NCBI GenBank assembly: GCA_965219995.1
Contig: CBDCOX010000002.1
Coordinates: 3,040,001 to 3,104,000 of the forward strand
Direction of reading: 5' to 3'
Length of the DNA stretch: 64,000 nucleotides
Source of the DNA: Candidatus Latescibacterota bacterium
GTDB taxonomy: Bacteria; Latescibacterota; UBA2968; GCA-2709665
The stretch's first letter is position 1; the number at the start of each line of letters is the position of its first letter. Both the position numbers and the translations under genes were made by a program. The notes under the pieces were generated by a model that was not told the origin of the DNA, did not search any database, and saw only the letters and a program-made list of their open reading frames with translations. Positions 1-13,472 of the stretch are shown here, one piece after another.

Positions 1-992
1 GTATTGAATCCCTTCTTGTATCCCAGGGCTTCGGCGCGCTCCCGGTCGGCTTCCGTGGGTTTGGGCGGCCCGAAGCGTTTCAGGTTTTCACGTACGATCT
101 CACACATCGCCCTGTTGGGCAGACGGGGGTATACGGCGGTGATGCGAGACCATTTCATCTTCGTGTCCGTGGCTCTGGCGGCGCCCCGTGCGCAGGCGGT
201 GAGACGCTCGCGCACGCCGTCGACCTGCTTGCGGTCTTTCCCCCGAACGAAATACCAGATTTTCGCATAGGCCGGCACCACGTTGGGTGCGTCTCCTCCA
301 TCGCGGATCACGGAATGGATCCTGACGTTTTCGGGGACATGCTCCCGGAGATAGTTGGCGGCAATATCCGTGAGCATCACGCCGTCCAGCGCGCTGCGGC
401 CCCGGTGGGCCGCAGCGCCGTGGGCGGTACGGCCGAAGAATTCGTAGACGACGGAGTCCAGCGACGACCCGCCGAAATTATTGACGCCGGAAGAGTTTCC
501 CGGATGCCAGGCGAGGCAGGCGTCCAGGTCCCGGAACGCGCCGTCGCGGGCCATATAGACTTTGCCGGCCAGCGTCTCTTCCGCCGGGCAGCCGTAGTAG
601 ACGATTTTCCCGGATGTGCCGGTTGATTCGAGAATCTTCGCAGCGGCGACCGCACCCACGGCCGGGGCAACGCCCAGGAGGTTGTGGCCTCAGCCGTGAC
701 CCCATTGCCCCTCCTCGGAACCGCAGTTGGGCAGCGCGTCGTATTCGCCGAGCATTCCGACCGCCGGCATGCCGGCGCCACTGGTCGCGCGAAATGCAGT
801 GGGGATATTCTTGAACGGGAACTCGACGTCGAAGCCGCGCGAGGCCAGGTAGTCCGCGATAGCCCGGGAGGATTTGACCTCCCGGAAGGGGCGTTCCGCC
901 CAGGCATGCACCCGGCCGGAGAGGTCCCTGGCCCGCTTCGACTCGGCAGCGACGGCGCGATTGACGAGACGCTTTTTTTCTTTCTGTTTCAT
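1..992 (-). CDS. M20D/AbgB-like amidohydrolase, 3' end outside window, in-frame UGA at 690-692 (candidate selenocysteine)
   Basis: ATG at 992 after an AGGAG RBS. Translation reads GEYDALP...GQWGHG*GHNLLG...YYGCPAEE...GKVYM...AWHP...FFGRTAH...GRSALD...YLREH...APNVVP, the AbgB motif series, in one frame across the UGA. Confidence 0.9.
656..689 (-). promoter_or_regulatory. Putative bacterial SECIS hairpin directly 3' of the UGA
   Basis: Minus strand after UGA: GG CCAC AACCT CCTGGGC GTT GCCCCGG CC GTGG. Upper stem GGGC/GCCC, apical loop begins with G 19 nt after the UGA, lower stem CCAC/GTGG. Confidence 0.55.
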
Positions 993-1041
993 GATTTTCT
1001 CCTGTCCATCCATGTCTATTCCGATTGCTGAGTGAAATGGG

Positions 1042-2130
1042 CTAGACCCTCGCGACGGCATCGGCCACCGCATCGCCCGCCTCACGCGTCCCGGCGGCGC
1101 CTCCCAGGTCTGCGGGGTGATTCTTCGGACTGTCCAGCGTTCGATCCACGGCGCGGTCAATCGTCTCCGAGGCCGCGGCGGCTTCGGGATCGTTGTGGCG
1201 CGCGCCCAGCCAGGACAGCATCATCCCCGAGGACAGGATCTGGGCCATGGGGTTGGCAATTCCCTCCCCCGCGATATCGGGGGCGGTTCCGTGGGACGGC
1301 TGGAAGACGCCGTAGCGGTCACCCACGTCCGCGGACGGCGCCATCCCCATCCCGCCGATGGTGGCGGCGGCCAGGTCGGAGATGATATCCCCGAACATAT
1401 TTTCCGCGACGACGACGTCGTACCAGCCGGGGTTGCGCAGCTGGTACACGGTGAATGCATCCACGTAGGCGTAGTCCCGTTCGACGTCGGGATAGGTCGC
1501 CGCAATCTCGTCGTAGATCTGACGGAAGAACGCCATGCTCTTCAGAATGTTGGCCTTGTCGACCGAGGTGACGCGAGTCTTGCCGTCGGCGGGCGCCCCC
1601 TTCCGCTGCCTTGCGATTTCAAAGGCGTACCGGACGATCCGCTCGGTGCCGGCGCGGGTGATCACCATGTTGTCCACGGCGAGGCTGTCACCCACGCGTA
1701 CCCCCGCGCCGCGGGAGGCATAGAGGCCCTCGGTATTCTCACGCAGGATGACGTAATCGAGCGGCGGATCTCCATCGAGAAGCGGCGGCACGCCGCGATA
1801 CTTCTTGATGGGCCGGATCCCGGCGTAAAGGTCCAGTTCGAAGCGGAGTGTCAGTTGGGGTGCGATTTCCGTGCCGTCGGGAAAACGGACGTCCGGATCG
1901 CCGGCCGAACCGAAGAGCACGGCATCGGCCTGTTTGCAGGCTTCGAGCGTGGATTCCGGGAGGTCCTCGCCGGTTTCAGCGTAACACCCGGCGCCCACCG
2001 GATGTTCGGAAAACGTGAATCGAAGATCGGGATGCGGCTCCTCCAGGGCGAGGAGCACTTTGAGCGCTTCCGCGACGACTTCCGGGCCGACGCCGTCTCC
2101 GGGGAGCACAGCGATGTTGTACGTTGGCAT
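1042..2130 (-). CDS. Isocitrate/isopropylmalate/tartrate dehydrogenase family protein
   Basis: Motifs IAVLPGDGVGPEV, RENTEGLY, VDKANIL, NMFGDIISD, HGTAPDIAG. Confidence 0.9.
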   Translation of the reverse strand: MPTYNIAVLPGDGVGPEVVAEALKVLLALEEPHPDLRFTFSEHPVGAGCYAETGEDLPESTLEACKQADAVLFGSAGDPDVRFPDGTEIAPQLTLRFELDLYAGIRPIKKYRGVPPLLDGDPPLDYVILRENTEGLYASRGAGVRVGDSLAVDNMVITRAGTERIVRYAFEIARQRKGAPADGKTRVTSVDKANILKSMAFFRQIYDEIAATYPDVERDYAYVDAFTVYQLRNPGWYDVVVAENMFGDIISDLAAATIGGMGMAPSADVGDRYGVFQPSHGTAPDIAGEGIANPMAQILSSGMMLSWLGARHNDPEAAAASETIDRAVDRTLDSPKNHPADLGGAAGTREAGDAVADAVARV

Positions 2131-2155: not shown

Positions 2156-3319
2156 CTACGAACCGCGGCGTGGGCGCTGGCGATCGCGGATCCCGATACG
2201 GAATCCGCCCGCGGACTTCACGCCTCGTTCCAGTACGTCCGATTCGACGTCGAATCCGGCGCCGGGCGTTTCAGGGACGACCAGCCTGCCGTTTCGCATC
2301 CGCCATCCGTCCAGGACGATGCCCGGCATGTCCGCGGGGGCCGCTTCCAGGAGGCTGAAGTTGGGAATGGAAGCGGCGAAATGGGCATGGGCGTACCGTT
2401 CGATGACGCTGCCCCAGCAGTGGGGAGCGCACTTCGCGCCCCATGGTTTGATCCGGTCCGCGGTGGCTTTCCACCAGGTCAGCCCCTTGTAGCGGAAGTC
2501 GTGCTGCACGATATCGATCCATCCTTTTTCCACCATGTCGAAGAAGCCGGGCGGAGGCGGCCCGGATTCACCGTCGGCCACGAGCGTGTCGTAGCCTCCC
2601 CGGTCGATGGCTTCCTTAAAGGCCTCATTGAACGCCCGGTCTTCGGGAAACGGCTCTTCGAACCAGTAGATCCCCGCGTCCCGGCATCGTTCGAGAATGT
2701 CCAATGCGATATTGAGCGTGGCGCCGTTGTTGGCGTCAACGAGAATTTTCGCGTCCGGTCCCGCGGCTTCGCGGACCGCGTGGATCACCAGCACGTCCCT
2801 GTCCGTACCTTCGCGAACCGGCATCCAGCGGGCGCCGCGCCCGATTTTGATCTTGAAATTGCAGTAGCCGGAATCGCGGCCGGTCCGGACTTCCTCGCGG
2901 AAGATTCGCCGCGCCTCGTCGTCGGTGGTGCCCAGATCGTCAATGTAGATGGAACCGTCGTAGAGTTCCACCTCACGGGCGCCGCGCGCGCCAAGAAGTC
3001 GAAAAAGGGGGATCCCTTCACATCTGGCGGCCAGGTCCCACAGGGGCAGGTCGATTGGAGCGCCATCGGCAGTCGACCCGCCGGGAAGTTCGAAGAGCGC
3101 CGAGGGGCGCATTCCGAGCAACGCTTCGGCGCGTTCCCTGCCAATGGCAGACCAGCCGATGCCCACGGCGCCGCCCGTGGTGCAGATACGAACGACCGGA
3201 TCGGTGACGGCGGGACCATGGACGCCGATGCGGGCGTTGGATCCCACGACGCGCGGGCGCTTTCCGTGCAGTACGACTCTTTCGATCCTGGCGATCGGGT
3301 CGGAAAAGGCACTTGACAT
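2156..3319 (-). CDS. Mandelate racemase/muconate lactonizing enzyme family (enolase superfamily)
   Basis: Motifs IDLPLWDL, FKIKIG, LVDAN, WFEEP, DGE, APH. Confidence 0.85.
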   Translation of the reverse strand: MSSAFSDPIARIERVVLHGKRPRVVGSNARIGVHGPAVTDPVVRICTTGGAVGIGWSAIGRERAEALLGMRPSALFELPGGSTADGAPIDLPLWDLAARCEGIPLFRLLGARGAREVELYDGSIYIDDLGTTDDEARRIFREEVRTGRDSGYCNFKIKIGRGARWMPVREGTDRDVLVIHAVREAAGPDAKILVDANNGATLNIALDILERCRDAGIYWFEEPFPEDRAFNEAFKEAIDRGGYDTLVADGESGPPPPGFFDMVEKGWIDIVQHDFRYKGLTWWKATADRIKPWGAKCAPHCWGSVIERYAHAHFAASIPNFSLLEAAPADMPGIVLDGWRMRNGRLVVPETPGAGFDVESDVLERGVKSAGGFRIGIRDRQRPRRGS

Positions 3320-11642: not shown

Positions 11643-13472
11643 CTACTGCGAACGATACTCGGATATTTTCTCCTTCACGAGATCTACCAGTCGTTCGCCG
11701 CGCAGGTTTTTCGCGATGATCTCCCCATCGGGGGCAATGAGAAACGTGGTTGGCCACGCCACGATACCGTAAGCTTTTTCAATCTTCTCGGTGGAAATCC
11801 CGTTGGCATACGGGATTTCATGAATCCTTATGAAATCTTCCAGGTCTCTTGGATCATTGTGAGCCAGACCAATGATCGTGAGTCCCCCGTCCGGAAAAGA
11901 CTCGTGAAGGTTCTTGAGATTCGGAAGTTCGTTTATGCAGGGACCGCACCATGTCGCCCAGAAGTCAAGAAAGACAAACTTCCCTCGATAATCGGAGAGC
12001 CGCAGCGAGTCTCTACCTGCGGCCGGCGCCACGAATTCGGGTGCGGCACTTTCTTCTCGCAGGTTCAGTGCATTCGACATCCGTTCAACGCCGCTGCCCT
12101 GGACCGTCCTGGAATTCGGATATTTGCGAATCAGATAATTCAGAACGTTGCGCGCGGCAACTGCGTTTCCGTAATCCCGGAAATGTTGTGCCGCACGCCA
12201 GAGCACTTTTTCCCCTTCACGTGAATCGGGCGGCAGGTTTCGTTCCTTCGCCACCAGAATGCCGGTAAAGAAAAAAGGCGGAACGTTGTATTTCTCGCCG
12301 AGATCCGGTGCGTGTTGTAGCCCTTCATCGAGGCGCAGATAGGTGATTGTATCGTACGTCCTAAAGAAAATGGAATTCGGATCCATTTTCTTTGCCAACT
12401 GCGCCATCTGGCTAAAGTAGCTCTCGTAGACCGTACTCTGATAGTGCTCCCTTCTCTTTTCTTCGAACTCCTGTTTATTGTGTCTCAGACTTTGCAAACC
12501 CTTCATCGCTTCAGCGTGGGGATGAAATCTTTTCAGGAATTCAAATCTAATTTTTACGAAGAGTTGTTCGAAATAAGCGGGGTATCGATTCGCAATTTCC
12601 CGGAATCTTTCTTCGCGCTCGATAAAGGCGGAAACGTCGCTCTCTGAGGATTGGGTGGTGTCGCGTTTGCTGAACAGAACCTGCATGTTTTCTTTTTGGA
12701 AAGTGTAGATTTCATCCACAAGACTGGCGAAGGCAGCCTGGTGTTCCCCGCCTGAGAATTCGGCTCTTGAGTCCCTCTTCGGCCGGACATACTGAGACGG
12801 ATCGAAGATAACCTCTCCACCTTCGTAGATTGAGTTGAATGTAACGAAACTACGAGGGTTGGGAATTGCACGGGAATGACTCAAGTCATAAACGTCGCTA
12901 CCACCGTTACTTACAATAAACCGATATCCACCGCCGACTTTAACGGGACTATCGCCTGGCAAAACCCACACGCTGTCTTTCCTCACCATTTCAATCGCGC
13001 CCCACGGCCGCCATCGACAAAAGTCACCCCACAGTTTGACCCATTCTATACCGGGCTTCAGACCGAAAGGTTCAAGATAAGCCGTCACATTTGCGTGAGT
13101 GCCGGCGTCAGGAACAAGCACTGACGTTTTTAACGTCTCATAACCGAAGGCGGAGATAACAAGCGTATACAGCCCGGGTTCCACGTCGAAAGTGAACTCC
13201 TTAGTGTCTAGCGACCGGGAGTTTTTCGGCCTGACGACAAATGGTCTCCACGTCAATTTCAATTCTTCTATCCCCACATAAATTGAATCCGGAATCGCCT
13301 TTCCATTTAACTTGATCGTCCCTGAAATAGTCGATCTGGAGGGTCTTTGCTCGTCGGGTCGTCCCGAGATTTCCAGATCCGGCTGTTGGACAACAGACAG
13401 CATTGAATCTGTTGACGCCGATACGTCGCCGGGAAGGAACAGGAAAAGTGCAGTCGCGATTCTCAAATTCAT
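11643..13472 (-). CDS. Exported TlpA-family redoxin with N-terminal beta-sandwich (carboxypeptidase-regulatory-like) domain
   Basis: Signal peptide, PGLYTLVISAFGYE, C-terminal FLDFWATWCGPC...WPTTFLIAPDG. Visibly more AT-rich than the flanks. Confidence 0.85.
   Translation of the reverse strand: MNLRIATALFLFLPGDVSASTDSMLSVVQQPDLEISGRPDEQRPSRSTISGTIKLNGKAIPDSIYVGIEELKLTWRPFVVRPKNSRSLDTKEFTFDVEPGLYTLVISAFGYETLKTSVLVPDAGTHANVTAYLEPFGLKPGIEWVKLWGDFCRWRPWGAIEMVRKDSVWVLPGDSPVKVGGGYRFIVSNGGSDVYDLSHSRAIPNPRSFVTFNSIYEGGEVIFDPSQYVRPKRDSRAEFSGGEHQAAFASLVDEIYTFQKENMQVLFSKRDTTQSSESDVSAFIEREERFREIANRYPAYFEQLFVKIRFEFLKRFHPHAEAMKGLQSLRHNKQEFEEKRREHYQSTVYESYFSQMAQLAKKMDPNSIFFRTYDTITYLRLDEGLQHAPDLGEKYNVPPFFFTGILVAKERNLPPDSREGEKVLWRAAQHFRDYGNAVAARNVLNYLIRKYPNSRTVQGSGVERMSNALNLREESAAPEFVAPAAGRDSLRLSDYRGKFVFLDFWATWCGPCINELPNLKNLHESFPDGGLTIIGLAHNDPRDLEDFIRIHEIPYANGISTEKIEKAYGIVAWPTTFLIAPDGEIIAKNLRGERLVDLVKEKISEYRSQ

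Follow-up and report, generated by a model that had tools for sequence, protein, structure and literature searches.

Does the in-frame TGA of an M20D amidohydrolase gene end translation, or does it encode selenocysteine (Sec)? The question is raised by the first kilobase of a 64,000-nucleotide (nt) stretch of Candidatus Latescibacterota DNA, hereafter the window (G000:C2:3040001-3104000, G000 being the window genome), which holds the 5' part of a gene of 440 codons. The TGA is codon 101 and the sole in-frame stop across these 440 codons, and the motif around it reads GHG-*-GHNLLG. An earlier note, made from the sequence alone, had observed that the open reading frame (ORF) track stops at 690 while the frame goes on, had placed the UGA within this motif, and had expected standard annotation to cut the gene in two. 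Past the TGA, the frame indeed runs on without a stop and out of the window, the motif was read directly at 692-690, and the table-11 ORF list splits the locus into 690-1160(-) and 3-659(-). The TGA forms likewise appear among public gene calls as C-terminal fragments of 320-336 aa, which gene callers begin at GTG (+11) or TTG (+5), where codons are numbered from the TGA. One such public fragment, P0025, has 94 member sequences, and another, P0087, bears as its sole name 'peptidase dimerization domain-containing protein'.

We conclude that the M20D gene is very probably a genuine selenoprotein gene, in which Sec would be inserted at the in-frame UGA, as the earlier note had proposed. The hallmarks of a bacterial selenoprotein gene were found together: a UGA confined to one alignment column, homologs with cysteine (Cys) elsewhere, the genes selA, selB, selC, and selD, and a downstream hairpin (hairpin B) that fits the published model of the bacterial Sec insertion sequence (SECIS) element. 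Additionally, the TGA form co-occurs with the Sec machinery across the phylum, and a conserved block of RNA follows the UGA. Each refuting condition of the earlier note that could be examined by computation turned out in favor of this view.

Conservation of the UGA and the selenocysteine machinery

The TGA is conserved well beyond the window genome. Orthologs were found in 37 of 41 relatives, each with a single TGA as its only in-frame stop. In a phylum survey of 168 genomes with an ortholog threshold of E <= 1e-100, the gene was present in 57 genomes; exactly one TGA and no other stop occurred in 55 of these, with identity down to 69%, and the two stop-free forms came from G154 (67% identity) and G058 (45%). 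The TGA column was identical in all 58 TGA-bearing loci that were read directly. The motif GHG-*-GHNLLG was found at 30/30 loci of one set and at 26/80 loci from a species-genome collection, where TGC or TGT occupied the TGA column in a further 52 and two were left unresolved by the search pattern. According to record titles, the TGA forms belong to Candidatus Latescibacterota, and the Cys forms come from Kiritimatiellae, Planctomycetota, Lentisphaerae, Armatimonadota, Aminicenantes, Bacillota, and Alphaproteobacteria; full-length Cys orthologs reach an identity of up to 77%. Relatives with both UGA and Cys at this column, to which the earlier note had pointed as a check, thus exist, with TGA prevailing within the phylum and TGC or TGT in other phyla. 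Six metagenome-assembled genomes titled Gemmatimonadota or Gemmatimonadetes by their submitters (L057, L060, L066, L067, L070, and L071) also carry the TGA form. The coordinates of L057 identify it as G011, which is placed in the window's genus, and the public phylum labels look inconsistent with the taxonomy used here.

The window genome encodes the machinery needed to read such a codon. The four genes selA, selB, selC, and selD, whose presence had been set out beforehand as a test, were all found: selC, selB, and selA form a minus-strand cluster at G000:C2:1802578-1806100, outside the window, and selD carries its own in-frame TGA in a typical G-U-x-x-K site. The reading frames of selA and selB are free of internal stops, which rules out a general reassignment of TGA as a sense codon in this genome. 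Across the phylum, selA was detected in 131/168 genomes and in 54/55 genomes with the TGA form; in the remaining one, G032 (completeness 91%, about 430 contigs), selA was not matched but a Sec-type selD was. In G154 and G058, the genomes with stop-free forms, selA, selB, and selD were all below the cut-off or not found. The TGA form therefore co-occurs with the Sec machinery, which, given that the genomes are kin, is a consistent pattern rather than a statistical test.

Further genes with in-frame TGA codons are present in the same genome (Table 1). A genome-wide SECIS scan returned 247 candidates, most of them spurious, and a stricter scan returned 44, three of which are plausible additional selenoprotein genes, but selD and fdhA dropped out; neither scan represents a selenoproteome.

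The RNA block downstream of the UGA

If the UGA is recoded, the RNA that follows it may carry a SECIS element in addition to encoding protein. Between 15 and 43 nt after the UGA lies a block whose synonymous sites are near-invariant in Sec forms only. Among 40 distinct Sec forms, the nine-codon window from +6 to +14 had a mean codon entropy of 0.187 bits versus 1.194 gene-wide and ranked first of 329 windows for low synonymous diversity; the ten lowest windows all fell between +2 and +11. The same codons in the 19 closest Cys forms had entropies of 1.0-1.8 and showed no constraint. A conserved hairpin region across the Sec forms, whose lack would have counted against recoding in the earlier note, is represented by this RNA block, which can form hairpins that agree with the published bacterial SECIS (bSECIS) model.

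The earlier note had described a hairpin 19 nt after the UGA with a loop starting with G. This detail is borne out in part: the candidate hairpins begin 12 nt (hairpin C), 15 nt (structure A), and 25 nt (hairpin B) after the UGA; the loops of A (GCCG) and B (GGGU) start with G, and that of C (CGUUGC) does not. Hairpin B, with its loop 32 nt past the UGA, is paired in 342/342 cells, one pair occurring as G-C, G-U, and A-U and another as C-G or U-G. Its loop is AGGU in 22, GGGU in 15, and GGGC in 1 of 38 sequences, and its energy ranges from -9.4 to -13.6 kcal/mol. The bSECIS model, as given in the 2026 AEM review, has a loop of 3-9 nt, a stem of 4-16 bp, a G in the first two loop positions, a distance of 16-37 nt from the UGA, and an energy <= -7.5 kcal/mol. 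Hairpin B agrees with all four constraints of the model, with a spacing at the far end of the allowed range. Hairpin C, paired in 100% of cells and with the loop CGUUGC in 34/38 sequences, fits the loop pattern N1-G-U-N-N2-N of the model at a spacing of 17 nt. Shifted registers gave only 22-78% of cells paired, compared with 100% for hairpins B and C. Structure A is the minimum free energy fold of the window's own sequence; with a C-A mismatch in 22/38 sequences, 93.9% of cells paired, and 500/500 shuffles scoring as high, it ranks below B and C.

Other selenoprotein genes of the window genome provide an internal comparison. The hairpins of selD, the formate-dehydrogenase-like gene (fdhA-like), the GPx-like gene, and the U-P-P-C thioredoxin-fold gene (UPPC) have stems of 6-7 bp and loops GGUC, GGUCU, GGUC, and AGUUG, respectively, which start 16-21 nt past the UGA; the U-P-T-C gene (UPTC) is not among them. 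Hairpin C shares this loop spacing, which holds for four of the other five selenoprotein genes analyzed, as well as the GU position of selD. Hairpin C and a shortened hairpin B can coexist, and either could be the one that SelB would bind. A long-range stem enclosing the UGA, suggested by RNAalifold, was set aside as uninformative, all of its variation being C or U opposite G, and an Rfam search over window 400-1000 found nothing relevant, the sole match being a chance hit to RT-15 at E 0.9.

Metal site, proposed mechanism, and alternatives

The protein is an HmrA/PM20D2-like M20D hydrolase, as judged from sequence profiles and a predicted structure. It scores 184.3 bits against the TIGR01891 hidden Markov model ('amidohydrolases', M20D group; cut-off 153.75), no more specific or dedicated NCBIfam model matches it, and PF07687 (M20_dimer) does. 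PF01546 falls short of E 0.001 on the protein itself and is precomputed on many orthologs. An AlphaFold2 model from 15 orthologs (mean predicted local distance difference test score, pLDDT, 87.6; predicted template modeling score, pTM, 0.88) has the two-domain fold with a dimerization or lid domain that is characteristic of the family. The top Foldseek match was HmrA 3RAM (template modeling score, TM, 0.88 on target), followed by human PM20D2 (7YH4, 8XZC, 8ZEI, and 8ZEL; TM 0.86), with further matches to CsAga 6SLF, ILL2 1XMB, 4EWT, YxeP 1YSJ, and AbgB-like 3IO1. A profile search of the PDB gave E-values of 5.6e-61 for 3RAM, 9e-51 for PM20D2, and 4.4e-9 for 3IO1. By analogy with HmrA and PM20D2, the substrate is likely an N-acyl amino acid or a dipeptide.

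In the alignments, the TGA column coincides with the Cys of GH[AG]CGH in 3RAM, 7YH4/8XZC, 1XMB, and 1YSJ. Residues C/U101, H103, E138/E139, H163, and H371 are invariant in the 15 orthologs and are candidates for the metal-ligand set Cys-His-Glu-His-His of M20D enzymes, with this Cys presumably among the metal ligands in ILL2 and HmrA. According to a review, a cysteine bridges the pair of zinc ions in CsAga, an M20D enzyme. We infer the metal-ligand role of the Cys column from this statement, from the conservation of the column, and from general background on the family. Sapep was considered as a further M20D enzyme with a Cys ligand and was ruled out, as PMC2937973 reports an Asp-bridged Mn site.

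Under the mechanism we propose, the UGA at codon 101 would be decoded as Sec by SelB and Sec-tRNA(Sec), a SECIS hairpin within the conserved block would direct this decoding, and a full-length 440-residue M20D metal-dependent amidohydrolase or carboxydipeptidase would be made. The selenolate would replace the conserved Cys of H-x-C-G-H, which ligates (in CsAga, presumably bridges) two catalytic metal ions, and selenium would then act as a metal ligand at the active site of a hydrolase, outside redox chemistry. We speculate that the advantage of Sec may lie in a ligand that resists irreversible oxidation or in an altered metal preference.

Several observations weigh against this interpretation. 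Sec insertion itself is deduced from sequence comparison. The equation of the bridging Cys of CsAga with the TGA column is a presumption, made on the grounds that no other Cys is conserved among the M20D matches. Among the RNA evidence, the covariation of hairpin B is weak, with one double-sided change and 93/500 shuffles scoring as high, and its loop lies approximately 15 nt further from the UGA than those of selD, fdhA-like, GPx-like, and UPPC. Hairpin C has no informative covariation (500/500 shuffles score as high), and on its own it reaches -3.9 to -6.5 kcal/mol, short of the -7.5 kcal/mol criterion; furthermore, the loop G is missing in one of the 38 sequences (L049). Folds A, B, and C overlap on one block and are not separable by these data. 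The 53-nt stretch is no more stable than its dinucleotide shuffles (-22 versus a mean of -23.2 kcal/mol, z +0.45, 128/200 shuffles at least as stable); because folding energy alone gives no support, the RNA case rests on conservation. Finally, X18, a contig from an RNA library (553-717), stops 25 nt beyond the codon and could be DNA carry-over.

Among the alternatives, read-through without Sec survives best, although we consider it improbable. A near-cognate or suppressor tRNA would insert Trp, Cys, or Gly at the UGA, and the RNA block would merely stimulate the event. Sequence analysis does not distinguish the inserted residue, and the hairpins are supported by conservation and not by SelB binding, both of which leave room for such a process. 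Nevertheless, it does not account for a column that is Cys in all non-TGA relatives, nor for a TGA form confined to genomes with Sec genes, the stop-free forms coming from genomes that lack them. The loops also carry the G-G/U motif of bSECIS elements and resemble the other SECIS loops of the window genome.

Slightly less probable still is that the UGA is a true stop, either in a gene split into polypeptides of 100 aa and roughly 330 aa or in a decaying pseudogene. The two fragments of the table-11 calls and the shortened public calls are what such a gene would yield, but the stop coincides exactly with the conserved Cys at the center of the metal motif, and a single stop with no frameshift is retained across 55 genomes, at identities as low as 69%. 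The first five codons after the TGA (+1 to +5: G, H, N, L, and L), which include a His of the metal motif and precede any restart codon, keep their residues through 4, 2, 2, 5, and 2 different codons among 40 distinct TGA forms. Synonymous change with retained residues is a signature of purifying selection, which points to a frame that is translated after the TGA, whereas two separate polypeptides would lose residues +1 to +5 from both chains. In addition, codon +11, one of the positions where gene callers begin the C-terminal fragment, is not a start codon in many relatives.

A sequencing or assembly artefact, or a nonsense mutation private to one assembly, has a negligible probability and was ruled out by the occurrence of TGA in 55 separate species genomes together with contig coverage of the codon. 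Regarding that coverage, mapping over 690-692, one of the checks proposed earlier, showed no other letter in contigs from two other studies or in the RNA run, and no differing letter was seen at these positions in four public runs. Contig X8 (359-772), from a different study, bridges the codon under a rule of 31 letters, which is satisfied only by X8 and by X1, the latter possibly being the source sample. Contigs X5 (247-718) and X18 cover the codon and end 25-26 nt past it, and count as non-bridging under this rule.

Evolution, gene context, and known systems

Sec at the M20D column most simply reflects a single change. In a quick maximum-likelihood tree of 71 distinct proteins (rows <380 aa, duplicates, and loci L111-L130 left out; Sec/Cys column masked as X; midpoint root), the 40 Sec forms constitute one clade with a Shimodaira-Hasegawa-like approximate likelihood ratio (SH-aLRT) support of 98, with L075, a Cys form from Latescibacterota and the ortholog of G154, as sister. 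The Sec clade and L075 are nested among planctomycete and kiritimatiellial Cys forms. The simplest reading of this topology is one Cys-to-Sec change, the direction of which is not proven.

The genes surrounding the M20D gene offer clues to its function (Table 1). Among 26 TGA-form loci, an Iso_dh-family gene was adjacent to M20D in 22, an M19 gene in 17, and an MR_MLE gene in 16. None of the three was ever found beside Cys forms from other phyla, and the flank is limited to the window's family and some relatives. The cluster of MR_MLE, Iso_dh, M20D(Sec), and M19 suggests peptide or modified-amino-acid catabolism, without fixing the substrate, and may belong to a pathway that handles dipeptides or N-acyl amino acids, perhaps with D-amino acids in them. 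The cluster is adjoined by an SMC-family gene on the opposite strand; in the two proteins encoded beyond it, the long N-terminal part has no Pfam match at E <= 1e-5. The first 1000 nt of the window, or close relatives of them, occur in sponge, coral, and marine metagenome runs (studies P2, P3, P5, P9, and P10), which suggests a marine, host-associated habitat for the lineage.

Table 1. Features of the M20D locus and its neighborhood, with selenocysteine-related genes elsewhere in the window genome. Positions are those of the window unless prefixed with G000:C2.
Feature	Position	Strand	Basis or remark
M20D amidohydrolase gene, 440 codons	G000:C2:3039670-3040992	minus	frame reading, TIGR01891, PF07687
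5' 992 nt (330 codons) of the M20D gene	1..992	minus	remainder at G000:C2:3039670-3040000, before the window start
Start ATG of the M20D gene	992-990	minus	direct reading
Shine-Dalgarno-like AGGAG, 6 nt before the ATG	999..1003	minus	direct reading
In-frame TGA, codon 101, proposed Sec codon	690..692	minus	column of the conserved Cys in H-x-C-G-H
Conserved block GGGCGUUGCCCCGGCCGYRGGUGCGGUYG	647..675	minus	15-43 nt after the UGA; near-invariant synonymous sites in Sec forms only
Candidate SECIS hairpin B	643..668	minus	7-bp stem 664-658/653-647, loop RGGU 657-654, 2-bp lower stem
Candidate SECIS hairpin C	662..677	minus	5-bp stem, loop CGUUGC, starts 12 nt after the UGA
Isocitrate/isopropylmalate dehydrogenase family gene (Iso_dh)	1042..2130	minus	upstream, co-directional; neighbor scan
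Enolase-superfamily gene (MR_MLE)	2156..3319	minus	upstream, co-directional; neighbor scan
M19 dipeptidase gene	G000:C2:3038562-3039599	minus	~70 nt downstream, outside the window; neighbor scan
SMC-family gene, 1222 aa	3635-7303	plus	opposite strand, adjoins the cluster
Two proteins, 691 and 609 aa	7479-9554, 11643-13472	minus	C-terminal AhpC/TSA-Redoxin-thioredoxin domain
tRNA-Sec	G000:C2:1802578-1802675	minus	next to selB and selA
selD, TCG-U-AAK	G000:C2:2652952	plus	in-frame TGA, family match
Formate-dehydrogenase-like gene, CSRA-U-HAPTV	G000:C2:899794	plus	in-frame TGA, named from motif only
GPx-like gene, NLASQ-U-GHT	G000:C2:5234593	minus	in-frame TGA, named from motif only
Two thioredoxin-fold genes, U-P-P-C and U-P-T-C	G000:C2:5157851, 440055	minus	in-frame TGA, named from motifs only

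To our knowledge, nearly every selenoprotein described so far is an oxidoreductase. Computation still turns up new bacterial selenoprotein families regularly, which tempers the surprise of another one. The recoding mechanism proposed here is standard; a non-redox metal-ligand role in a hydrolase is unusual. The 2026 AEM review regards most of the 119 prokaryotic selenoprotein families in its 'most comprehensive inventory' as probably redox, and neither its main text nor Table 1, which lists them, names an amidohydrolase, M20, hydrolase, peptidase, acylase, dipeptidase, or protease. No such family appears in the main texts of BSepDB 2026 and deep-Sep 2025, and the main text of a 2022 review has none save a 'trypsin-like serine protease'. 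The literature search, which covered main texts, yielded no paper that ties an M20, amidohydrolase, or AbgB enzyme to selenocysteine; a listing in supplementary tables is possible. Thus, M20D(Sec) appears to be a selenoprotein family absent from the main texts of these inventories.

Beyond the recoding itself, we lean, with some reserve, toward a broader hypothesis: that this would be the first selenoenzyme in which Sec bridges a dinuclear hydrolytic (Lewis-acid) metal center in a purely non-redox role, and that it arose once from a Cys ancestor in Latescibacterota and has persisted in at least three of the families there. An oxidation-resistant or metal-shifting ligand may have been favored by selection, and the gene may use a composite SECIS, made of two adjacent hairpins or one distant hairpin. 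If true, the Sec and Cys forms would be a natural pair for learning what selenium does at a metal site outside redox chemistry, opening questions of ligand pKa, metal selectivity, and oxidation tolerance. Because the M20D(Sec) gene is cut to a fragment in public calls, the selenoproteome of Latescibacterota is under-described, as is its peptide and amino-acid catabolism.

Among known systems, the best PDB matches in both sequence and fold are the M20D carboxydipeptidases or aminoacylases HmrA from S. aureus and PM20D2. Their GH[AG]CGHN aligns with GHG-U-GHN, and the PAEE motif and dimerization domain are common to both sides. However, they carry Cys instead of Sec, their identity to the M20D(Sec) protein is only 24-27%, and the latter is longer at its C-terminus and carries, ahead of the motif, an insert of 7 residues (CGSEEGQW). 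CsAga, the N-alpha-acyl-glutamine aminoacylase of Corynebacterium, shares the M20D subfamily and fold at a greater distance (profile E 3.5e-9, 18% identity).

The family had initially been named M20D/AbgB, of which the first part stands by TIGR01891 and fold and the second is an annotation label. AbgB, subunit B of p-aminobenzoyl-glutamate hydrolase, belongs to the same M20D/TIGR01891 superfamily, and JGI labels the Cys orthologs 'aminobenzoyl-glutamate utilization protein B', but the AbgB-like 3IO1 is a weak and distant match (E 9.6e-6 and 4.4e-9, Foldseek rank 17), the nearest relatives being HmrA and PM20D2. The genes at the flanks are M19, Iso_dh, and MR_MLE, and no second M20 gene was present among the scanned neighbors, the search for abgA and abgT not having been genome-wide.

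In formate dehydrogenase (Mo/W-Se) and [NiFeSe] hydrogenase, Sec also ligates a catalytic metal, the SECIS lies just downstream of the UGA, and Cys homologs exist; in the window genome, the fdhA-like and selD loops lie 17-18 nt past the UGA. These two systems are redox enzymes, whereas the M20D(Sec) protein would be a hydrolase with a predicted dinuclear Lewis-acid center.

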